Shown: piece by piece, positions 19,913 through 32,017 of the stretch
Layout: the number at the start of each line of letters is the position of its first letter
Numbering within the stretch: the first letter of the stretch is position 1
NCBI GenBank assembly: GCA_963754875.1
Contig: CAVWHO010000016.1
Location: forward strand, 256,001 to 320,000
Reading direction: 5' to 3'
Origin: Nitrospirota bacterium
GTDB taxonomy: Bacteria; Nitrospirota; UBA9217
DNA: 64,000 nucleotides
Position numbers and translations under genes: made by a program
Notes under the pieces: model-generated
What the model saw: only the letters and a program-made list of their open reading frames with translations
What the model was told of the DNA's origin: nothing
The model's database searches: none

Positions 19913-20857
19913 ATGAATAAAACGCTCGTACTGCTGTCCGCCCTTGTACTCCTCTTTGGCTCAGGAGGTTGTACGCTGCTGAAAGTTTCCGTCGGCGAAG
20001 AAGTGCAACCCTTCACCGAAAAAGTGATCGCCGGCGAGGGTCGGGATAAAATTCTGCTTCTCGACATCTCAGGCGTCATTTCTTCCAGCACTGAGGGCGG
20101 CTCGTTCTTCGGCGGGAAAAAAGAACCTGGCCTGCTGGCTCAGGTGCGGGAACAATTGGACCGGGCGCGGTCCGACCGGGCGGTCAAGGCGCTGCTGCTC
20201 CGCATCAACAGCCCGGGCGGCGGGGTGACGGCATCCGACGTGCTCTATCATGAGCTGGTAAAATTTAAACACGAGACAGGCGTTAAGGTCCTGGCCCACA
20301 TCATGGACATAGGGACCTCGGGGGCCTACTATACGGCCCTCGCAGCGGACCGGATCACGGCCCAGCCAACGAGCGTGACCGGCAGCATCGGCGTGATCAT
20401 GTACAGTTTCGATGGCGCGGGCTTGATGCAGAAGATCGGGCTCCAGGCTGTCGAGATTTCCTCGGGAATCCGAAAGGGCATGGGTTCCCCCTTCCGCCCG
20501 CTCGCTCCTGAAGAACGGGCCATTTTCCAAAACGTGATCGACAGTCTCCAAGGACGGTTCGTGAATACCGTTATGGAATCCCGGAAATTGCCGCTGGAAA
20601 CGGTGAAGAAACTTGCTGATGGTCGCATTTACACGAGTCAGGAAGCGCAAGCCGCAGGTCTCATCGACAGCATCGGCTATATCGACGACGCCATCGACCA
20701 GGCCAGGAGCCTGGCGCACCTGGAAAAGGCTTCCGTAGTGACCTACATTCGTCCGGGAGAATACCGCTCTAATCTGTACTCGCTCAATCTCGTCAATATT
20801 GACATGGGAGAGGTCATGGGGCCCGGAGCGCACTTTATGTATCTGTGGTGGCCTTGA
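19913..20857 (+). CDS. sppA: Signal peptide peptidase SppA (S49)
   Basis: RINSPGG, SGAYY, GSIGV, DGRIYT; lipoprotein-like N-terminus. Confidence 0.92.
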   Translation: MNKTLVLLSALVLLFGSGGCTLLKVSVGEEVQPFTEKVIAGEGRDKILLLDISGVISSSTEGGSFFGGKKEPGLLAQVREQLDRARSDRAVKALLLRINSPGGGVTASDVLYHELVKFKHETGVKVLAHIMDIGTSGAYYTALAADRITAQPTSVTGSIGVIMYSFDGAGLMQKIGLQAVEISSGIRKGMGSPFRPLAPEERAIFQNVIDSLQGRFVNTVMESRKLPLETVKKLADGRIYTSQEAQAAGLIDSIGYIDDAIDQARSLAHLEKASVVTYIRPGEYRSNLYSLNLVNIDMGEVMGPGAHFMYLWWP

Positions 20858-20931
20858 CCGAAATGCGCGATGATGGTTGACAGCAGCGCAGTTGCTATGC
20901 TATCGTAGCACTGTTCAGAGAGGAGGCAACC

Positions 20932-21402
20932 ATGAAAATGAAACCTATTCTGTTGGTGGCTGTGCTCGCACTGTTTGTTTTGATTCCCCTGCTGGGACTG
21001 GCGGAAGAGGAGCTCTTCGATACCAAAGCGGCATCGCAGCATCTCGACCAGGGTGTCGCCTATTTAAAGGCCAAAAATTTTGATGCTGCCATCAGCGAAT
21101 TTGAGACCTCCGCGGGTATTAATCCCGATGCCGAAGCCTACTACTACCTTGGCTATGCCTATTATCTCAAGGGCAGGACCGGCGATGAAGAAAGCAGGAA
21201 CAAGTCCCGGGAAAATTTCGAGCGGGCCTATGAGATAGACCCGAACTTCTCACCGTCGCGGTTCAAGCCTACGGAGCAGGTCCCTGCCCACGTGAAGGAA
21301 CCGGAAGAACCCGCGCCACCCGCATCAGAGGCAACGCCGACACTGCCCGGCCCGGCCCCGGAACAGCAACAGCCCGCGCAGCCCGCAGACCAGGCGAAAT
21401 AA
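20932..21402 (+). CDS. Exported TPR protein with Pro/Gln-rich tail
   Basis: Signal peptide, AEAYYYLGYAY, FERAYEIDP. Confidence 0.8.
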   Translation: MKMKPILLVAVLALFVLIPLLGLAEEELFDTKAASQHLDQGVAYLKAKNFDAAISEFETSAGINPDAEAYYYLGYAYYLKGRTGDEESRNKSRENFERAYEIDPNFSPSRFKPTEQVPAHVKEPEEPAPPASEATPTLPGPAPEQQQPAQPADQAK

Positions 21403-21462
21403 GGGTCCCTCAACACCTCGCCTGCCCCCTGAAGTAGCCCGCTCCGCAAAGGCAATAAGAAA

Positions 21463-21495
21463 TAAAAAACCCCGGTTGCGTTTCACAATCGGGGC
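21463..21495 (-). terminator. Intrinsic terminator after csp
   Basis: CCCCGATTG...CAACCGGGG then T6 on the minus strand. Confidence 0.7.
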
Positions 21496-21523
21496 CGATT
21501 ATAGATTGCGGAGACTGTAGTGA

Positions 21524-21724
21524 TTACAGTTTCACGACGTTGGTCGCCTGGGGACCTTTCGGTCCCGCGCTCACTTCGAATTCAACGTCCTGATCCGGCT
21601 GCAGGGACTTGAACCCTTCGCCTTGAATGGCTGAAAAATGCACGAAAACATCTGTGCCGGTATCCTGGGTAATGAAGCCATAGCCTTTGGCGTCATTGAA
21701 CCACTTTACTTTACCTTTCACCAA
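21524..21724 (-). CDS. Cold-shock protein (TTG start)
   Basis: [12 protein letters not shown] (RNP1), DVFVHFSAI (RNP2). Confidence 0.95.
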
Positions 21725-22052
21725 GCAAATTCCCTCCTTTTCTGCAAAATCCGAGGACGATGCCCTGTCCTGGGCCCGATCAGTGCTGCTTAGACAGCCG
21801 CATCACCGCTCAAACACGTTAACACTATCAAAAAGTTTTTTTTGTGTCAAGCGTTTTCAGATCGGGACAAACGGGCATGACAAGTAAAAATAGGTTCGAT
21901 GCCGGGAGGAGCCCCACACCCTCGGCCGGCGCTGCTGCTGCCGGCACGAACCGCGGACTCCGTCATCATGCTCTTTCCGCCCCCCGATGAGGGAATCGTA
22001 TCAGCCACGTGCCGATTTCGATCATCGCGATCAAATAAGCACGAGGGCAATC

Positions 22053-22331
22053 TTACCAAGCAGTCAGTTCTTCCAGCTCGGTAAGCAACTGCAGAGCTTC
22101 CGCCCTGTTTTTCCCGCACATATCCGATGTCTGGTAGGAACCACACACCGCCGGCCGGTCCGGCGTGCCGTAAATCGCGCAGAGGTTGTTCTGCGTCAAT
22201 TGTATGCACCGGACTCCTGCGGGTTTTCCACCGGGCATGCCCGGAACGTTCGACGACAGAGAGGGCGCAATACAACAGGCGCCGCATCCGGCGCGGCAGA
22301 TAAATCTTTGTGCATCGGGGTTTGTATTCAT
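22053..22331 (-). CDS. YkgJ family cysteine cluster protein
   Basis: CRAGCGACC...C..L....LCAIY...RPAVC. Confidence 0.85.
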   Translation of the reverse strand: MNTNPDAQRFICRAGCGACCIAPSLSSNVPGMPGGKPAGVRCIQLTQNNLCAIYGTPDRPAVCGSYQTSDMCGKNRAEALQLLTELEELTAW

Positions 22332-22394
22332 GAAAAAAAACGGTCTTCGCCTGCGGCCGAGTTCCAGGACCACCCCTGCATCAAAATGAAATAA

Positions 22395-22508
22395 TCACTG
22401 GACCTTGAGCTTCTGCTTCGTAAAGGAGATGAGGGTTTTCATCTGGGCGAGCAGGCTGTCGAATTCCTTGTCCTTGGCAGTTGCCGAGTGGTGAAGTACG
22501 ATCAGCAT
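22395..22508 (-). CDS. Putative 37-aa small protein
   Basis: GGGAG RBS 7 nt before ATG; MLIVLHHSATAKDKEFDSLLAQMKTLISFTKQKLKVQ. Confidence 0.5.
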   Translation of the reverse strand: MLIVLHHSATAKDKEFDSLLAQMKTLISFTKQKLKVQ

Positions 22509-22596
22509 GCAGTTACTCCCGGATTACGTGATGGTCACGCCGGGTCAGGCCAGTATAATGTTTCATGACCGGGCGTAGAAAAAAACCGCCGCGTTT

Positions 22597-22812
22597 TCAT
22601 TTTTTTTCTCCCCGTTCCCGTTTCCGGCGCACCGTAATGCTCTCACCGGCAATGCCCCAGTTATCGGTATCCACTTCTTCGATGACCACGACCGTGGTTT
22701 GCGGGTTCTTTCCGAGGATATCCTGCAGCATGGTGGTCACTCCCTGGATCAGCTTCGCCTTCTGTTCCGTTGTGGCGCCTTCTTTGGTTATTTTGATGTT
22801 TACGTAGGGCAT
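22597..22812 (-). CDS. 4-oxalocrotonate tautomerase family protein
   Basis: Catalytic Pro1 (MPYVNIK), EQKAKLI, NWGIAG. Confidence 0.9.
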   Translation of the reverse strand: MPYVNIKITKEGATTEQKAKLIQGVTTMLQDILGKNPQTTVVVIEEVDTDNWGIAGESITVRRKRERGEKK

Positions 22813-22853
22813 GCAAACCTCCGCAATCACGTGATGACGTCATACGACGTGCG

Positions 22854-23639
22854 CTAAAAAACCGTACCGCCGATATGCGCCATGGTGAGGCCTTTTGTGA
22901 TCTCGCGTTTGATATAGACTTTGATCACGCTTTGATCTTCGGGGTTGATGCGGACAAACTTTATTCCCATGCCCGAAGTTTTCAGCGGGCCTTCGCCGCG
23001 ATGGAAACTGTAAAGCACCATTCCCTCGACCTTGATTTTCAGGTCTTCCAGTAATATCGTGATGGGGATCTGGAGCCCTACAGGTTTGGGTTTTGATGTG
23101 CTGATATACATCCCCTGTTCCGACAAGGCAGTGATGTAATCTCCGCTCCCGGCAAATTCCGCGGCTTTGTCATCTCCCACGATGACGTTCAACGAAGTAT
23201 TAAGCCGGATATACTGGCGTGGCCGCGATTCCGTCGCTTTCTGTATCGCCGCGTACAGCACATCGGGCTCCACCGGCTTTTGCAGGTAGGCGGCGCACCC
23301 TTCCTGCAGAGCGGCGGCTTTGACCGCCTGGTCTTTTGACGACGTAAGCATGATGACCGGCACGGAAAAGGACTGCGGATTGCGTTTGATCTTTTTCAGG
23401 AGTTCAACACCGTCCATCCCGTTCAGGGATATTTCCGTCAAGACCAGTGCGGGATGGGCAACGCCCACGATCTCCAGTGCGTCTTCCGCGGTTTTCGCCG
23501 TATGGATATTGTATTCGAGCCGTTGCAGCAGCATGCTTGTATAATACAGATGTGCGTTGTTGCCGTCGACGACGACAAGGAAGCGTTTTTCCCGGTCCCC
23601 GGATTTTACCGCCGCATTTTGAACAATTGTGTCAGCCAT
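22854..23639 (-). CDS. Atypical receiver + PilZ domain protein
   Basis: Receiver fold with E at the phospho-Asp position (VLTEISL); RQYIR...LSEQG...GMGIKF. Confidence 0.82.
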   Translation of the reverse strand: MADTIVQNAAVKSGDREKRFLVVVDGNNAHLYYTSMLLQRLEYNIHTAKTAEDALEIVGVAHPALVLTEISLNGMDGVELLKKIKRNPQSFSVPVIMLTSSKDQAVKAAALQEGCAAYLQKPVEPDVLYAAIQKATESRPRQYIRLNTSLNVIVGDDKAAEFAGSGDYITALSEQGMYISTSKPKPVGLQIPITILLEDLKIKVEGMVLYSFHRGEGPLKTSGMGIKFVRINPEDQSVIKVYIKREITKGLTMAHIGGTVF

Positions 23640-23726
23640 CGCTGCGCTCCTTGCTGTGTGATTTCCCTAGGAAGATCATTCGTTGCTTTTGTTCCCGCAT
23701 CTCATGGTTCTTACGCCCCAAGGGGT

Positions 23727-24339
23727 TTAAATCGGCAGCTTGATTTTATACCGGATGGCGAGCATCCGCAAGATGAAAGTTACGCCGATGCAGGCGCTGA
23801 CCGCCGCAATATCGTTGCCGCCGGTATGGGTGACGATCAAATAGACCCACGCGCCCAGGAAGGCGCAGGTCGCGTACAGTTCGGTGCGCTGAAAAACATA
23901 GGGGATCTCATTGCAGATGATGTCACGCATCACGCCGCCGAAGACGCCCGTAATGACGCCGAGGAGGGATGAAACGAAGGGGGCGCAGCCGAGCTGGTCG
24001 GCGAGCGACGCGCCCGAGGCACTGAACGAGCCGAGCCCCAGTGCATCGAGCATAAGAACGAAGTGCATCACTTTCTTTTTGTTAAAAAGTTGCTCGATCT
24101 TCATCGTCGATACCATGGACAAAACGAGAAGAAGGACGGCATACTCGTAATGCTGTATCCAGAACAGCGGGTGACGGTCGAGCGTCAGGTCGCGCACGGA
24201 CGCCGCCGCCGAAGGCCGTGATCATGCCCACGGTATAGACGCCGACGATGTCCATTCCCTTCTTCCGCGCCTCGTAGATCCCCGTAAGGGCAAAGGCGAT
24301 GATACCGAGGACCTCGATTGTTTTAATGAGCGTGTTCAT
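23727..24339 (-). CDS. Trimeric intracellular cation channel (YadS-like) protein (frameshift near 24198)
   Basis: AFALTG, TAFGGG..RD, DALGL, TGVFGGVMRD, ELYA. Confidence 0.85.
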
Positions 24340-24806
24340 CAGATCACGTCATTTCTCCTGGTATGTTCCTCCGGGCTCACTTTAAAGTCGAGGATCTGCC
24401 ACTGGCTGCCGTGCTTAATCAGCGAAATTTGCATCTCCACCGATCCCGCCTCGAAATCCGCGCTCGCGGTGTAGTCGGCAGTGATGTCATATCCGCTCAG
24501 GGAAATGGTTATATTGGAATCTCCGGTCGAACCGTTATACCCCTGGAACTTTCCCAGTTCCTGGAGCGATCCGAAGTAGTCCTCCACATCATCGTAATCT
24601 ACAGAAGCGTCGAGTTCAGGACTGGCGCGTTTTTGAAGTTCCTCGACGTCCCAGTCGGCAACAATCGCAGGCACAGCAGCGTCCACAAAGGCCTTGCTCT
24701 CTTTGTCCAGCTTCTTTCCGATGATTGTTACGGACGCGATCGTGGCGGCAATGACTACGATGAGGGTCAAAAAAATGTAGCCCAGAATCATGATCGTTTT
24801 TTTCAT
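24339..24806 (-). CDS. Hypothetical single-TM protein
   Basis: N-terminal TM, acidic domain ending WQILDFKV; stop overlaps next start. Confidence 0.7.
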   Translation of the reverse strand: MKKTIMILGYIFLTLIVVIAATIASVTIIGKKLDKESKAFVDAAVPAIVADWDVEELQKRASPELDASVDYDDVEDYFGSLQELGKFQGYNGSTGDSNITISLSGYDITADYTASADFEAGSVEMQISLIKHGSQWQILDFKVSPEEHTRRNDVI

Positions 24807-25090
24807 GGATGGTCCTGCTCCTGCTGTTTAACAGCGGGGCTCTTCTTCCTTACAATAATAACACGATTTTTCATTCTGTATGGTATATCTTGCCGGATGG
24901 CCGGGAGAGCCTCAGGTCCTCCTCGGGACGATGTCGCTGCCGACGGCTCGGCATCGGGTAAGGAATGCGCAGCGGGCGCTGCGAAACCTAGTGGAGCCCT
25001 CCGGCAGGAGCCGGAGGCTCCAAATACATACACGACCTCCCGCCTGCACCCGGCGTTTACGGGTGCAATAGCACGAATGCAGGGCGCGCG

Positions 25091-27073
25091 TTACGGCGCG
25101 TTCCTCCCCCGGCGGGGGCCGGGGGATTCCAAGTCGCGGGATCGGGCCATGCTCCCAAGCTCATCGAGCAACGTTCCTGCGCTTCCCGGATCATGGAAAG
25201 CCGCGGCCTTTGCCTCGTTCCACCTGCGCCGGAGCTTCTTCACCTTCTCGCCCCTTGCCTCTTTCTTCTTCAGGAGCCGATCCAGTACCTTCAGCCGGGC
25301 ATGGTCAGCCTGCAGATCTCTGCTAAAACTGCGGTACTTCACAGGATCGGCTTTCGGAATCGAAAAGTCGCCCTTTGTCTTCCAGATGTCGCCCAGATGG
25401 AGCCATGCGGCAAAAGCGGTCGTCTTTTCATCAGCCAGAGGAACGATCTTCGATGTGGCCCTGATGTCCGTTACGTGAAGTCCGTTCTTGTCCGCTACAA
25501 CTTTCTGGCTGCCGGTGAACGGCTCTGCTCCCTGCGTATCAAAATACTTCCACGTCACCCGTGCGATTTGCGTCTCTGAGCCATGGCAGCTTTCACAGGT
25601 GCGGGACTTGCCGTAAGGATGCGCAACCTCTTCCACCTGAAGCCACGCAAGGTAATTGTTGTTCCCGCTGGCAACTCTGAATGTTCCGAGAAGCGCATAT
25701 GCGTCGTGGGTCTCTCCCTTTGGCCAGCGGAATGTGAGCCCCGGTGTCGGTTTGATGACTTCTTTGATGCCGCCTGCGCTGTTCGGCCAGATCTTCGTCG
25801 GCATCCACCTGCCGTTCTGATCTTTGAGCAGGATCGGCGGTTCCTGCGGTCCATAGTACAGCGAATACTTTTTGAAGGGATTCGGTTTGGAGAGGATCTC
25901 CCCGGGTCCCCAGGAGGTCATCTCATAGCCGCCGAGGACCTTCACGTGGCAGGCAGCACAGGCAAGGTTCTTGTGAACGCTCGTGGCCATTGCCTGTTCT
26001 ACTTCGACGTGGCAGTCCTGGCACGTCGCCTTTCGGTCAATATGTCCCATGCCGCCTGGCCCGGTTTCGTGACAACCGACGCACTCGATCTTCTGGGCGA
26101 CGTGGACATCTTCAGGCAGACCGGCTGGCTCCGAGAAATCTTTGCCGAGATAGCTGTCCCCGCGCCTTCGCTCCATGGTCCCGGCATGACACACGAAAGT
26201 GCTCCGCCCCCCTCCGGTGCAGTTCGGCGACGGCGGGATGCGGCTGAACGCGTGGACGCCCTGCTTCGGCGTGGGCGCATAATGACAGTCGAGACATCCC
26301 GCGTGGCAGATGTTGCACGCCTTCTGCTTCGCGATCGCCTGATCGTGAGAGAGCGGGAGATTTATCTGTTCAATAATCTTTTTTGTATTCTCGAAGGAGA
26401 ACTTATTTCCTTCTGCCCTGCCGACCGGCTGGGTGTCCGCAAAAGACGGCCCTCAATTATTCGGGCCGTGAATATCGTCCCAGACCCGCATGGACCGCTG
26501 CCGGAAATTCGCGCCCATGATGCTCGTACTGAATTGCTTCACTTCTTCGGGATGGCACGAAGACTGGCCGCAGGTCTTCTGCGCGATACGGGGATCGTAG
26601 CCTAAGGTGAGCGTGTTCCGGTCGTGATACAGGATCGTGCCCACGTCGTAATCGAGCGACCCGTCAGCAAGGCGCGGAAGCATGTTCCGCAAGCGGTCTC
26701 CTCCTGAAGGAAGGAGCTGATTGACATGGTTTTTGCGCGGTATGATGTTCAGGTCATTGTCCAGCACGATGAGCTTGAGCATTCTCTTGTGCGCCCTGTC
26801 GGGATCATCGGACAGGCCGTTGCCGAGGTGGCAATCGCGGCATTCGGTGTTCGGGTGGCGGGATTCCTTCTGCACCTGCTCGCGGGTCATCACGAACTGG
26901 GGGTAGCCGAGCTTTGTCATGCGTGCTTTGTCCGCATGGCAGGCAACACACTTGTCGCTGGATTGGTAGCCGGAATAGAAGAAGAGGAACAGCAGAACGA
27001 GGGCGAGTTGGAGGAGAAGGATGCTCATCCCGCGCTTGCTTCCGAAAAAATTCCAGAGTCTTCCAATGGCCAT
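25091..27073 (-). CDS. Membrane-anchored multiheme cytochrome c, probable selenoprotein (UGA codon 207)
   Basis: ORFs 26453..27073 and 25091..26194 share a frame and are separated only by TGA 26455-26453; 8 CXXCH plus CX4CH and CX9CH; SECIS-like hairpin follows the UGA. Confidence 0.8.
26409..26446 (-). promoter_or_regulatory. Putative bacterial SECIS element
   Basis: UCUUUUGC-ggacac-CC-a-GCC-GGUC-GGC-a-GG-GCAGAAGG starting after a 6-nt spacer 3' of the UGA; G-led apical loop ~26 nt downstream. Confidence 0.7.
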
Positions 27074-27131
27074 AAGAGGTTCTTTTAGATAAAAGTTAGA
27101 ATTTTCTTTTCCTGGTCGATTTGCGGCGCTC

Positions 27132-27446
27132 TTATTCTACGTTCCACTCGCCGGGTTTTAAATGCGTGAAGATATCCCGGCTCCCATGGATGACGGCAAC
27201 GATGGAACATGATGTATCGCTCGCTTTATAGATTATTCGGTAGGCCCCATAAATAAGTTCCCGGATGGATTGATCGTTGAATTCGGGAACTATGCGGCCA
27301 AGGAAGGGAGACTGTTGAAGTATGCGCGGTGCTTGAACAACACGCACGCCGAACCGTTCTGCATAGACGACGGAGTCTTTGGCAATATACTCAATGATGC
27401 TCTGAAGATCGTTCAGCGCCGGTTCTGTCCAGACGACTTTAGCCAT
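27132..27446 (-). CDS. RelE/ParE family toxin
   Basis: VVWTEPALNDL..I.EYIAKDS, GRIVPE, YRIIY, VIHGSRD. Confidence 0.9.
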   Translation of the reverse strand: MAKVVWTEPALNDLQSIIEYIAKDSVVYAERFGVRVVQAPRILQQSPFLGRIVPEFNDQSIRELIYGAYRIIYKASDTSCSIVAVIHGSRDIFTHLKPGEWNVE

Positions 27447-27619
27447 CCCTCAACCCTTTTTTCAGCCTCTTTCTGTGTTACCACGCGTCCTTCGTCAATT
27501 GCTTTCAGGCCGTGCTCCACTTTTTCCCGTACGTAGAGGTGATAATGAATATCCTCCAGGGTTGAGTCTTCGGGAAGGGACTTGATGAGCTCGATCACTT
27601 GTTCTTTTACATGTGCCAT
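27413..27619 (-). CDS. Putative cognate antitoxin
   Basis: 68 aa, overlaps toxin start; LPEDSTLEDIHYHLYVREKVEHGL. Confidence 0.8.
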   Translation of the reverse strand: MAHVKEQVIELIKSLPEDSTLEDIHYHLYVREKVEHGLKAIDEGRVVTQKEAEKRVEGWLKSSGQNRR

Positions 27620-27756
27620 ACCGCCACCTCCAACTGCATTATTCTAACATACCTCTGCGTGTTTTCACATAAAAATAAATTGTCGAGCATACTGATTTCA
27701 AGCCCAGCAGTGCGTCCATCCCAGGCGCGAGGTTCCTGTTCGCTTGAGCCAGGAAC

Positions 27757-27789
27757 GTAGGTCGGGTAGAGCACAGGGCAAACCCGACA
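27757..27789 (+). repeat. GTAG-type REP element
   Basis: GTAGGTCGGGTAGAGC...AACCCGACA. Confidence 0.8.
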
Positions 27790-27837
27790 TCATTCATTTC
27801 GCTAATTTCACGGTAAGGTTTGTGCTGCGCGACCGCC

Positions 27838-28833
27838 CTAGTAAAAATCCCGCATCAGAAAAAATCGTTCTTTCACCTTAGCTGATTCCATCGGCCGAAA
27901 CGTTCTGATCTGACCCTGATTCTCACTATATCGTATCTCATAAGGTTGACCGAGCACCTGCGTTAAGTGATAGAACGTCACAAATTCGGCAAAATCCTCG
28001 GCCCAACTCATGCTTCCATATAATGAGGCAAAAGGCGTCTCCAGAAGCTGCTCGTAGATCCGGACAGCGTCGGAGATTTCTATCTTCGGCTGAACGCTGT
28101 AAAATGCAATGTTTTTCCTCATCTGAAAATCGTATTGAGGCAATGGCGTTGTAGGATCGACCCAGGTATTTCCGGTAAAGGACGTCGCTGTCGTCTTAAC
28201 TCTCTTAATAAGCTGGATGTGCTTTTCAGCATAGGGGGTATACGATTCGACATAATCTACAACATGAGTCGCTTCGTGGATAAGCGCGTAGATAAAGCCG
28301 GTAAATTTCGTGCCGCAATTTACTTCTATTTTTACGTCCAACGCGTTCCTTATAAAACAGGTATTTTCACGATAGGTCAGCCATTTTGACAAGTCCGTCT
28401 TCAGCGTGTCCGGGTTGAACAGCATGACGGTGTAGATATTACTTTTCTCATCGAGAACATAATCCGTTGCCCCGCTCCCCTGCAGGTTATGAATGAAATA
28501 GATTGCGATGAGGCGCTTCTGAAGCACTTCTTTGTGACGCCGGGGGAGTTTTTCCATATAGTCCCCGATCATGCGCATCTCTTTCTGCGTCGGCATGTAT
28601 GCGGAATAGTTCGTGACCTTGTCCGTCTTATTCCAGAAGCCCACGACGAAATCGGGGGCTTGTTTTACTCTCGAAAGGATCGTGGACGTATTGTCGAACG
28701 CATACGCTTTGAGGTTCTTCGCCGGTATTGAGGCAAGGGTATTGAGAAGTTTCGTGCGGGGACTGGTTTGACACGAGAGAAGCGAGAAGAGGGCGATGCA
28801 TAGTAAAAAAGATCCGGCAATCTTATTCTTCAT
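27838..28833 (-). CDS. Lipoprotein, putative zincin metallopeptidase
   Basis: Lipobox LLSC; HEATH (HEXXH) and downstream EDFAE. Confidence 0.7.
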   Translation of the reverse strand: MKNKIAGSFLLCIALFSLLSCQTSPRTKLLNTLASIPAKNLKAYAFDNTSTILSRVKQAPDFVVGFWNKTDKVTNYSAYMPTQKEMRMIGDYMEKLPRRHKEVLQKRLIAIYFIHNLQGSGATDYVLDEKSNIYTVMLFNPDTLKTDLSKWLTYRENTCFIRNALDVKIEVNCGTKFTGFIYALIHEATHVVDYVESYTPYAEKHIQLIKRVKTTATSFTGNTWVDPTTPLPQYDFQMRKNIAFYSVQPKIEISDAVRIYEQLLETPFASLYGSMSWAEDFAEFVTFYHLTQVLGQPYEIRYSENQGQIRTFRPMESAKVKERFFLMRDFY

Positions 28834-28939
28834 AATTATTTCCTCTGTGCGCCCGTTCATCCGTGGAATTCAAGCAACTTTACCGTGCCGCTGTGCAGTT
28901 CGAACAACGTGTCGCTTTAGGCGGAGTCGGGCCGGGCCC

Positions 28940-29512
28940 TCATTCCAGTACTATGTCGTACTGGCTTAACAAACCGGCTATACCGGGAAAGGAAAACTTC
29001 GCTTTCCGAACAGTGTTCATTTCAAGGTTAATCGTGTAATTGCGAGACGTTTTAAAATCAGCTTGGCTCAAGTTTGTGCGCCTAAAAACAGTGTTCGAGA
29101 GGTCGCAGTTGTCAAAGGAGGCGCCTGTCAAGTCCGCTTCGGTGAAGTCCGCCTCCCTGATGCTACATTCTTTGAATCTCGTTTTTTTCAACTTGTTCTT
29201 GATGAAAATAGAATAGTCCAGGCTACATTTCTCAAAGCTCACCGCAAACAGGAGGGGGAGACATCTACTAAAGTCGACTCCAACTACCTTGCAGTTCAAA
29301 AAAGTCACATTTCTCATCCCAGCACGGTTGACCTTCGTCATGCTCAGATTGCAGTCAATAAATTTGCAGTCAGTAAAGCGCGTGTCGGACAGGTCGCTCT
29401 CAGAGAAATCGCAGTTTATGAAGGTGCAATCTTCGAATTCCTCACCCGCCAATCCGGTTCCTGCATAAGAGACCTTCTCGAAAACCTTATCAGCGTGTGA
29501 TACTTCCTTCAC
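28940..29512 (-). CDS. Pentapeptide repeat protein
   Basis: Repeated (A/C)(D/N)(F/L)xx pentapeptides. Confidence 0.9.
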   Translation of the reverse strand: MKEVSHADKVFEKVSYAGTGLAGEEFEDCTFINCDFSESDLSDTRFTDCKFIDCNLSMTKVNRAGMRNVTFLNCKVVGVDFSRCLPLLFAVSFEKCSLDYSIFIKNKLKKTRFKECSIREADFTEADLTGASFDNCDLSNTVFRRTNLSQADFKTSRNYTINLEMNTVRKAKFSFPGIAGLLSQYDIVLE

Positions 29513-29549
29513 CTAAATCCCCTTGCTGCCCGATATCGTCGTGCCGGCG

Positions 29550-30032
29550 TTATTGTTTCGGTTTGATTGGTATCCATATTTCCTCTTCTGAATTTGGGTC
29601 TTCATTTTTATATTTTTCACCTAATAGTTCGAAATGCGGCCTATTGTCTAAAGAGTAATCAGAATTTGGCAACCAAGTCCCGAAAATATACTGAAATGTT
29701 TCTCGTCCTGCGCTTGCAGCTCCTTTATGTAAAAAAACGGCATAAAGTCCGCCTGACAATGTAATGGTTTCCATTTCATGAGGAACCGCATTAAAGTCCG
29801 TCACTTCAATAACCGCCCATTTTTCAAATTCTGTGTTTGGGTTAAAATTCCTAAAATACAAATCATCATACACTTGCAATGAATAAAGTTCCGTGCCAAT
29901 GTTGTTTTTTATTTCTTTTCGCATGGGCATAAAGTTTCGCCATAGTTCACCTGTTTTATTGTCGGACAAAGACATTATCATTCGTTTCCCAATTAATTTT
30001 TTTTCGGTTAATAGTTCCATCCTCGCTTTCAT
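29550..30032 (-). CDS. GyrI-like small-molecule-binding protein
   Basis: GGLYAVFLHKG, IFGTWLPNS, RPHFE, EEEIWIPI; AT-rich relative to flanks. Confidence 0.88.
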   Translation of the reverse strand: MKARMELLTEKKLIGKRMIMSLSDNKTGELWRNFMPMRKEIKNNIGTELYSLQVYDDLYFRNFNPNTEFEKWAVIEVTDFNAVPHEMETITLSGGLYAVFLHKGAASAGRETFQYIFGTWLPNSDYSLDNRPHFELLGEKYKNEDPNSEEEIWIPIKPKQ

Positions 30033-30108
30033 AATGAAATGGCTATTCCTTTTTGTTGCCAATTTGTCCTGCCGTGTCGGTTCGCTTGCACCTAACCAGA
30101 CAAAGTCC

Positions 30109-30304
30109 GTAGGTCGGGTAGAGCGCAACGCAACCCGACATCCTTTCTAAACATCGTTTCTTAACACAGGACTCCCTGTCGAGAGACGTGTTGCCAAACA
30201 ATGGTCTTTGTTTACGGTCAGACAGATAGCGCGGCGCCGGTCCTCCTTACAAGGTGACACTTACAAAAGCGTCGGCTTTCGCGACGTCGCTCTACCCGAC
30301 CTGC
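30109..30304. repeat. Inverted pair of GTAG-type REP elements
   Basis: 30109-30140 (+) and 30271-30304 (-) share (GT/GC)AGGTCGGGTAGAGC. Confidence 0.8.
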
Positions 30305-30340
30305 TGGCTGGTCAGGCGTGCTGTATCTCATCACTTTTTT

Positions 30341-30730
30341 TCAGGAGTTTTCCTGACCCGATTCAGCCATGACCTGCTTACGAATCTCGTCGCGCAGATA
30401 ATCCAGCAGCTCCTGAGAACTCAGGCCTCGCCGTTGAGTCTCGGTTCTGACCCAATCTAACAACAACAGCCGCTGGGGAAGCGGCATGCCTTCAGTGCTA
30501 AGGGCTAGAGTGGAGCCGCAAGGACAATTCGTCAGCGCGACAGACCCAATTGGCCGCATGGTGTGCCAATTGTCCAATTCTGCATCGTAGGACATGGACG
30601 GCCCAATACGTTTGGTGATCAGAATATACTCGCGCAGCGTGGTAAAACAGCGGTTACAATTTGGGCAGACCTTGGGGAAAAGCCCTTCAAAGTGTTCGCG
30701 TAGTGTCTTGATAACCTCATCTTCTGTCAT
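30341..30730 (-). CDS. Hypothetical protein with CPNC and CPCGSTL motifs
   Basis: 129-aa ORF with putative metal-binding Cys motifs. Confidence 0.7.
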   Translation of the reverse strand: MTEDEVIKTLREHFEGLFPKVCPNCNRCFTTLREYILITKRIGPSMSYDAELDNWHTMRPIGSVALTNCPCGSTLALSTEGMPLPQRLLLLDWVRTETQRRGLSSQELLDYLRDEIRKQVMAESGQENS

Positions 30731-30772
30731 AGCGGGAAAAGTTGAACCAATGTCTCCGATCTTGCCGCTCGT

Positions 30773-32017
30773 TTATATACTTCTCTCGTATCCGCAGAAG
30801 GGGCACCGCCAGGCCTTCTCCTCCTCGTGCCAATTCATTTTCTTACGGCAGGCCGGACAAGTCTTTTTTTTGGGCGATGGTTGGTGATGGGACGTTGATG
30901 ATCTCTTTTTTGGTTCCTGGTATTCGTTGAACGGCAGGTCCGCCAAAGGGACGGCAAAGGGCGGAGATGGATCGGAAATCGGCCCCGAAGCCGGAGCGGG
31001 TTTAGGTGCGTTCGTATGTGCACTTTTCTCTTCGTTTTTATCCTGAACGTCACCCTCTTTTGATTCTTCGTATGCGCAGGAAAAACAAATCCACTTTTTC
31101 TCATTAATGTAGAAATCCATTCGCCCCCCGCACATAGGGCATTTTTTCTGCCATTCTGTATCCTGCGGCGCAGAAGGCTCAGGGATTTCGTTTTTCTGCT
31201 CGCTGCCTCCCTTTTCCTCTTTTAATTCTTCGTATGCGCAGGAATAACACCTCCACTTTTTCTCCCTAATGTTGAAGTCCATTCGCCCCCCGCACATAGG
31301 GCATTTTTTCTGCAATTCCATATCCTGCGGCGCAGAAGGCCCAGGGATTTCGTTTTTCTGCTCGCTGCCTCCCTTTTCCTGGCTGGGAATATCACTTTTA
31401 ATGGAATCCCTGGGCAGGATTGGCTGAGAGGCCGCACTTTCAGCAGCTAGACTTCCGCGACTTTCTTATTGATATAGGTTATCTCTGCCGCAATATCCGC
31501 GAAGAGTTCCCCCACTGCCTTCGAGACGAGTTCCGTATCCTTTTCCCGCGCCGCCATGCCGGTGAGGATCTCTTTTTCTTCGCTCTCAAGCCGCCCTATT
31601 CTTTCCCGCAGTTTCGATATCTCTTCTCTTATCTCCCGCGATTTGGCTTCCATGACTTTAAGCTCGTCGCGCCAGCCGGAGAGGAGCGCTCAATAAGCCC
31701 TTCTCGAGTATTTTAAGCTCCTCAAGCTGATTGTTAACGGCCTTAGCGATATCTTGCCGGCTTACCTTCGAAGTCGTCGATAACGCTTTGATAGCGGCAT
31801 TATAACGCTGTTTCTCGTCAGGAATGATTTCCCGGAACGATTCCACGAGTCCGTGGAATTTCCCGAATATCGTATCCTCACTTTCAATTATTTTTTTTAT
31901 TTCATCGCGAAGACGGTGGATTTTGGATGACAGCTCTTCGCCTCCCTTCGTTTTCACAAAGAGATCGGCAGCTATCCGGGAAAGGATTTCGTTCCTGTTT
32001 TTTTCTTCAGCGCCCAT
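30773..32017 (-). CDS. Coiled-coil plus three zinc-ribbon protein (2 apparent frameshifts)
   Basis: Abutting ORFs 31658..32017, 31447..31653 and 30773..; CPxC...WxCxxCxYE three times. Confidence 0.6.
31064..31380. repeat. Intragenic tandem duplication, 162-bp period
   Basis: 31064-31218 and 31226-31380 are highly similar, each encoding linker + Zn ribbon. Confidence 0.9.

Follow-up and report, generated by a model that had tools for sequence, protein, structure and literature searches.

We identified a gene for a ten-haem c-type cytochrome, on the reverse strand of the window (the whole 64,000-nt stretch of Nitrospirota DNA that was analysed), whose internal UGA is almost certainly decoded as selenocysteine (Sec). 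Our reading of the whole, which we hold with a probability of about 55%, is that the product is a Sec-containing, anchored periplasmic ten-haem cytochrome with the fold of octahaem tetrathionate reductase (OTR), in which Sec207 lies at the catalytic haem and acts in the cleavage or formation of S-S bonds in an inorganic sulfur compound. The cytochrome family is uncharacterised and distantly related to OTR. The gene and the recoded codon are:

25091..27073, reverse strand: gene for a ten-haem c-type cytochrome of 660 aa with Sec at codon 207 (translation, homologs, AlphaFold model)
26453..26455, reverse strand: in-frame TGA at codon 207, predicted selenocysteine (Cys in homologs, TGA recurrence)

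Translation of positions 27073-25091 yielded a single frame of 660 codons, and its sole internal stop is the TGA of codon 207, in the context HGPNN-stop-GPSFAD. The two called ORFs, 26453-27073 and 25091-26194, are pieces of this one frame and are separated by 86 open codons. The original prediction, i.e. two cytochrome ORFs that form one frame broken only by the TGA at 26455-26453, with 86 stop-free codons between them, agrees with the translation in both respects, and the intervening codons show synonymous variation. There is almost certainly one gene, not two, at 25091-27073. Assembled contigs from two runs cover the TGA, with no variant at 26453-26455 among the matches listed; this observation is not counted as evidence.

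A homolog database search found 577 proteins, and the following counts for column 207 refer to the 120 that were listed. Cys is present in all 86 listed homologs that cover the column (84 of them longer than 600 aa), and in 85 of 85 of the listed full-length sequences of >600 aa, with the query counted as C. The original statement that homologs carry Cys at this position was therefore correct for the full-length proteins among the matches listed. The other 34 listed homologs are shorter and do not include column 207; they are 70-83% identical to the query and their starts are scattered over residues 215-247, which is the pattern expected of genes split at a stop. All 13 distant homologs (29-40% identity) retain Cys at 207, and some of these belong to a cluster with members named Hydrothermarchaeota archaea. 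The cultured species Dissulfurispira thermophila has a member in the P0034 cluster, the representative of which has Cys. Four distant homologs that retain the Cys, P0138-P0141, are 712-1152 aa long; P0141 has a fused N-terminal five-haem domain with a weak match to ExtKL.

The codon itself was read in genomes. The 33 GTDB loci with the motif have TGA in 21 and TGC/TGT in 12 cases, and no other codon (locus L039, which lacks the motif, is outside this count). In a scan of 301 Nitrospirota genomes, a match to the gene was found in 118. Of the 50 close matches of the gene's own family, including the genome under study, 47 contain a TGA, as do the matches in six genomes of a second family, so that TGA at codon 207 recurs in 53 of the 118 gene-carrying genomes. 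At every locus read, the position of the TGA is codon 207. A genome labelled Betaproteobacteria also contains a copy with the TGA (L009 / G302:C77:4757-6652), which shares 91% identity with the query segment; this reflects either mis-binning or transfer.

These data bear on the possibility that the TGA is a true stop, i.e. that the locus encodes two separate proteins or represents a pseudogene or an assembly error. Such a reading would account for the many C-terminal halves that databases contain as separate proteins, but it is very improbable: in 53 genomes the stop is always TGA and always at an invariant Cys, the 86 codons between the ORFs are conserved with synonymous variation, the downstream half has neither a conserved start nor an export signal, and the downstream hairpin described below is gone when the codon specifies Cys. 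Still less probable is a reading of UGA as Trp or Cys through an altered genetic code or suppression, for which no supporting point was found. The only tRNA with a TCA anticodon in the genome is tRNA-Sec and the tRNA-Trp has the anticodon CCA, homologs show Cys and never Trp, and close orthologues of the cytochrome gene use TGA as an ordinary terminator.

The genome encodes the machinery for selenocysteine incorporation. The genes selA and selB as well as the tRNA-Sec are located on contig C20, and selD, itself with an in-frame TGA, is on contig C13; selA, selB, selC and selD are all present. Among the other 52 TGA genomes, selA was detected in 48, in one of them as frameshifted pieces. The four genomes with undetected selA, which would be compatible with a true stop, are 68-89% complete, and two of them show tRNA-Sec; in the other two, G127 (89% complete) and G236 (68%), neither selA nor selB nor tRNA-Sec was detected. 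As selA was also found in 25 of 28 Cys-form genomes tested, the machinery is permissive and not diagnostic. Together, the Cys column, the conserved TGA, the hairpin linked to it and the sel genes all agree with the selenoprotein that had been predicted.

The recoding of the UGA would very likely proceed via a hairpin bound by SelB, for which two elements were delineated:

26416..26433, reverse strand: SECIS-type upper hairpin, CCC-A-GCC / GGUC loop / GGC-A-GGG, the loop beginning 26 nt past the UGA (fold, frozen synonymous sites, comparison of TGA and Cys loci)
26409..26446, reverse strand: possible lower SECIS stem, weakly supported (minimum-free-energy fold of 60 nt only; 83% of cells paired, one pair mostly broken)

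The minimum-free-energy fold of 60 nt reproduces the hairpin of the original prediction, with a stability no better than that of shuffled sequences (z -0.18), and the lower stem is absent from folds of 80 or 100 nt. The case for the hairpin therefore rests on the conservation of the upper stem-loop and not on folding energy. At 22 of 22 TGA loci, codons +7, +9 and +10 are identical though four-fold degenerate, while flanking four-fold codons vary. We also applied a simplified hairpin test of our own (not bSECISearch), modelled on the bacterial SECIS constraints published in PMC13188914, by which the hairpin has an energy of -9.4 kcal/mol and the loop GGUC. Of the distinct TGA loci, 44 of 45 satisfy the test, compared with 4 of 17 Cys loci; these counts are not independent because the loci are related to one another. 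As a background, 386 of the 7401 TGA codons that end long open frames in this genome pass (~5%). Only modest covariation was found: two-sided change occurs at 4 of 13 pairs, a number reached in 9 of 500 shuffles, the covariation score is matched by 31 of 500 shuffles, and the remaining measures do not exceed shuffled values. Hence, of the proposed SECIS element, the upper stem-loop is supported by its conservation among TGA loci, and the lower stem is weakly supported. Rfam gave no match within window positions 20000-32000.

In the second family, the six loci with TGA have another hairpin, with a three-base loop at an equal distance from the UGA, and five of the six pass the test. In a quick maximum-likelihood tree of 68 sequences, Sec occurs in two groups, with well-supported Cys branches between them; seven label changes are needed, at least four of which are forced by supported branches, and there are several returns to Cys inside the gene's own family. 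The two groups in the tree and the two hairpin types suggest that Sec may have been gained twice, in two clades with different hairpins. In the second family, the Sec and Cys forms share the rodZ-cytochrome-rnr locus. The idea that genomes revert to Cys after losing the Sec machinery was rejected: G111, which has the Cys form and in which selA/selB were undetected, keeps tRNA-Sec and a TGA-bearing MccSep, so that an assembly gap is likely.

The architecture of the protein was derived from hydropathy, motif scans and alignments, and includes the following features:

26975..27034, reverse strand: N-terminal hydrophobic segment, residues about 14-33, predicted membrane anchor (hydropathy; single segment)
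26828..26950, reverse strand: haem motifs 1 and 2 (C42-H46, C78-H82), an N-terminal extension without OTR counterpart, in common with ExtM-like proteins (alignments)
26552..26572, reverse strand: haem motif 3, CX4CH (C168-H174), equivalent to OTR haem I and a plain CXXCH in distant homologs (alignments)
26303..26317, reverse strand: haem motif 4 (C253-H257), equivalent to the catalytic haem II of OTR (C74-H78 of 1sp3), predicted active-site haem (alignment, 1sp3 numbering)
26282..26296, reverse strand: haem motif 5 (C260-H264; alignment)
26159..26221, reverse strand: haem motif 6, CX9CH (C285-H296), which includes an invariant R290 and precedes an invariant R303-R304 (152 of 152 rows of the alignment)
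25946..26083, reverse strand: haem motifs 7-9 (C331-H335, C351-H355, C372-H376; alignment)
25583..25597, reverse strand: haem motif 10 (C493-H497), equivalent to OTR haem VIII (alignment)

The expected 660 aa with eight CXXCH, one CX4CH and one CX9CH motif and a single N-terminal transmembrane segment were recovered, and the protein is likely to be membrane-anchored on the periplasmic face. We count ten haem sites because the CX4CH is replaced by CXXCH in distant homologs and the CX9CH aligns with the canonical CXXCH of OTR and of ExtM-like proteins; haem would accordingly be predicted to be attached at both unusual motifs as well. The genome encodes cytochrome c assembly proteins. Residue 207 lies outside the haem motifs, as had been stated, and is the only Cys/Sec position outside them. 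A count of the candidate distal ligands fits residue 207 both as a ligand and as a non-ligand. An AlphaFold model of residues 32-641, which is haem-free, has a mean pLDDT of 93.1 and a pTM of 0.92.

We assign an OTR-type scaffold to haems 3-10 with high confidence. The hhalign comparison with an OTR profile, built from 28 OTR-like sequences of the same phylum (Nitrospirota), gave 98.4% with an E value of 1e-14 over residues 152-521, and haems 3-10 correspond one to one to OTR haems I-VIII. The best fold match in both searches was the OTR structure 1sp3, with an E value of 1.2e-3, a probability of 0.97 and a low TM-score of 0.20-0.27 in Foldseek, and a Z of 10.1 and an rmsd of 3.8 for 244 aligned residues within residues 160-575 of the model in VIA; nearly all remaining VIA rows match the C-terminal helices only. 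The OTR model TIGR04315 did not match the cytochrome at an E value of 0.01, nor its own genome at 1e-20.

In OTR, catalysis takes place at haem II, which has a Lys ligand (PMC3769277, PMC13562315), and the second haem motif, the lysine and a cysteine are named as conserved catalytic features (bioRxiv 10.1101/2023.04.20.537704). In 1sp3 numbering, Lys56 and Cys64 lie between haem I and haem II (C74-H78). Residue 207 is in the same inter-haem segment, 33 residues past the haem-3 His, compared with 30 for Lys56 and 38 for Cys64, and aligns between the two or just before Lys56, the register shifting with alignment settings. By this alignment, Sec207 is probably situated in the pocket of haem 4, which we infer to be the active site. 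The original proposal of an axial ligand or catalytic residue would thereby be placed in the loop of the OTR catalytic haem. In the alignment, the invariant R303-R304 falls on a part of OTR that follows haem IV and that we take to line the haem II pocket.

The OTR genes themselves show a comparable replacement. Another phylum, to which G301 belongs, was scanned over 331 genomes; of the 67 OTR matches listed, 23 contain one in-frame TGA. Of 30 OTR loci that were read, two Cys rows of which were registered by eye, 15 have Cys, and in the other 15 the Cys64 codon itself is TGA and is followed by a hairpin of one of two types (L129, L131, L132, L136, L137, L143-L145, L148-L151, L153, L154 and L156). 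Taken with the TGA at codon 207, these loci indicate repeated use of Sec in this loop among members of the superfamily. Of the 15 Sec-type OTRs, 12 have an additional Cys two positions ahead of the haem II motif, compared with a single one of the 15 Cys forms; this Cys may form a pair with Sec or may simply be dictated by the SECIS element. Selenoproteins with c-type haem are less rare than the original prediction implied, since MccSep has been characterised and Sec-bearing OTRs are common.

For the function, the sulfur assignment is made by analogy with MccSep and because of the distribution with dsrA, and on this basis a sulfur substrate is somewhat favoured. MccSep provides a precedent for polysulfide reduction by Sec plus haem, with Sec325 proposed as the attacking residue, and the introduction of the same report names TsdA for catalysis at a His/Cys-ligated haem (PMC13510729). 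The gene dsrA, for dissimilatory sulfite reductase, is present in 108 of the 118 carriers of the cytochrome gene, 44 further genomes have dsrA without the cytochrome gene, and 139 of the 301 Nitrospirota genomes have neither; among the families listed, none without dsrA carried the cytochrome gene. This co-occurrence follows lineage and is weak evidence for a sulfur role.

In the proposed mechanism, haems 1 and 2 would take electrons from a quinol-linked partner and relay them through the other haems as far as haem 4. At this site, the selenolate is proposed to attack the S-S bond of an anionic substrate of the polysulfide, polythionate or thiosulfate type, held by the invariant Arg/Lys/Tyr residues R290, R303, R304, Y383 and R449, and the adduct would be discharged by electrons via the other nine haems. 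With the lysine absent, haem 4 might be His-ligated with Sec nearby, or might be ligated by Sec itself. A more far-reaching version is that Sec207 replaces the OTR lysine and ligates the haem-4 iron directly, so that a selenolate-ligated c-type haem would be the catalytic centre of a widespread sulfur-cycle enzyme that evolved from Cys forms on two occasions in Nitrospirota, with a separate SECIS element in each case; we regard this version as conceivable and rather doubtful.

Two other functions were weighed, both of which we judge unlikely. The first retains the selenoprotein and the OTR-type site but has a nitrogen oxyanion, sulfite or selenite as the substrate at an open haem iron, with Sec in the second sphere. 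The physiological substrate of OTR is described as unsettled: in vitro, OTRs are mainly nitrite or hydroxylamine reductases, and sulfite reduction has been proposed (PMC12949373). A weak match to an NrfA profile, over ~80 profile positions around haems 7-9 (6v0a, E 3e-7), points in the same direction. Against such a substrate are the lack of conservation of the OTR haem-II lysine and the absence of the cytochrome gene from the dsrA-lacking families searched; judging from what is described for MccSep (PMC13510729), selection of Sec in two clades would also fit chalcogen-chalcogen chemistry better. A related assignment, of the CX9CH to the CXXCK active site of NrfA, was dropped, as it was based on an alignment with an E value of 0.13 and motif 4 emerged as the catalytic haem from the OTR match.

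The second alternative is an ExtM-type electron carrier without catalytic function, whose Cys/Sec207 would serve as a permanent axial ligand and keep the haem at a very low potential. ExtM-like proteins, which are often fused to cytochrome b, are indeed the closest profile relative (99.9%, E 2e-31, 383 columns; the profile used 79 of 119 matches, those of <700 aa) and share the haem order and most candidate distal ligands (H/M73, H95, M186, H274, H324, M342, H367, H485). However, the invariant Cys207, the CX9CH, the RRG and the Tyr/Arg residues have been gained and are not conserved in ExtM-like proteins, the OTR catalytic-haem motif is kept whereas the carrier MmcA is reported to have lost it (bioRxiv 10.1101/2023.04.20.537704), and the neighbourhoods scanned contained no cytochrome b partner. 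Membership in ExtM proper (NF040943) was rejected, with a score far below the cut-off and no ext-type operon with cytochrome b in the same neighbourhoods.

The genes around the cytochrome gene have housekeeping functions (radA, a TRIC-family gene, rodZ and rnr), and no operon was evident from the gene neighbourhoods scanned. Rhodaneses flank 1 of the 19 loci listed: at L093:2624-4027 (G048), two rhodanese-domain genes immediately precede a Cys-form homolog, and no other neighbours related to sulfur were observed. A TRIC/glycine-transporter-family gene (PF03458) follows the cytochrome gene in 19 of 34 loci. In the window, within 23727-24806 on the reverse strand, the copy of this gene is apparently 5'-truncated (156 aa versus about 203), and an unrelated ORF of 155 aa lies between it and the cytochrome gene. 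A ParE/RelE-type toxin gene (27132-27446, reverse strand) is located directly upstream of the cytochrome gene, with no antitoxin ORF of ≥100 aa listed next to it. Past the end of the cytochrome gene and overlapping it, at ~24985-25110, is a dispersed GC-rich repeat of ~55-120 nt; BLAST gives 16 rows for it in the genome, one of them the self match, its depth in read sets is raised, and it looks REP- or MITE-like.

Family libraries contain no name for the cytochrome. NCBIfam and Pfam gave only weak matches to ExtN/ExtO and cytochrome c7, a PDB sequence search with the single protein gave nothing at an E value of 0.001, and PDB profile searches gave short NrfA matches only. The ESM Atlas contributed only unnamed clusters of the family itself and ExtO-like clusters. 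Of the 119 prokaryotic selenoprotein families tabulated in PMC13188914, the c-haem entries are ExtKL, GSU2204 and a GenBank-annotated OTR-family protein, and none of the NCBIfam models for these three matched the cytochrome. Word searches of the main texts on BSepDB (PMC13326102), deep-Sep (PMC12013277) and SelCysML (PMC13745706) gave no mention of cytochromes or haem, and no publication on the ten-haem family was among those listed in literature searches.

The results would add a further family of multihaem-cytochrome selenoproteins, the gene of which is split in two by gene callers across dozens of Nitrospirota genomes. Within a single loop of the OTR fold, Sec would have arisen repeatedly, i.e. 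in OTR itself and in two clades of the family described here. As the reaction of OTR is unsettled, the natural Cys/Sec pairs at the rodZ-cytochrome-rnr locus give a direct handle on the role of this residue, and the member in the cultured D. thermophila makes the family open to bench testing.

Among known systems, the cytochrome was compared with OTR (S. oneidensis SO4144, PDB 1sp3, TIGR04315). The two share an eight-haem core in the same order, the same predicted fold and the swap of Cys to TGA; each has a conserved Cys/Sec in the segment ahead of the catalytic haem, with a relative register that varies with the alignment mode. They differ in that identity is only ~19% over the aligned structure, that two N-terminal haems, a membrane anchor, the CX4CH, the CX9CH and a C-terminal helical extension are specific to the new protein, and that the spacer from Cys to haem is 45 residues long instead of 9 in OTR. 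An equivalent of OTR Lys56 is lacking, as 31 aligned family members have no conserved Lys in the haem 3-4 segment before or around residue 207. Given the missing Lys, the two extra haems and the failure of the OTR model, the protein would work like a Sec-OTR but is not one. The ExtM/ExtN-like cytochromes (NF040943, NF040967) line up with it at all ten haem sites and at most candidate distal ligands; unlike the Sec207 cytochrome, they do not have Cys207, the CX9CH and the RRG, contain extra haems and often carry a cytochrome b fusion.

MccSep/ExtKL (GSU2937-2936, NF040886), as described in PMC13510729, is likewise a periplasmic multihaem c selenoprotein of sulfur-cycling bacteria and is common in Nitrospirota. 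It has five haems, with a His/Cys-ligated haem and a separate Sec, whereas the Sec207 cytochrome has ten motifs and one free Cys/Sec. Identity of the two was rejected, with no NF040886 match, 4.4% in hhalign and the genome's own MccSep at another locus (C13:139614-140888, L040), with an in-frame TGA. The 60 nt downstream of that TGA fold weakly (-9.7 kcal/mol), with no clear hairpin of the tested type. MccSep did not appear in the lists of fold matches, to which we attach no weight. MccSep is present in 76 of the 118 carriers of the cytochrome gene and absent from 42. For a bond between selenolate and haem iron, the natural precedent is a Sec-ligated cytochrome P450 (PMC11703216), a monooxygenase of the P450 fold that is unrelated to c-type multihaem proteins; if Sec207 ligates iron, natural selenolate ligation would be extended from P450 to c-type haem.
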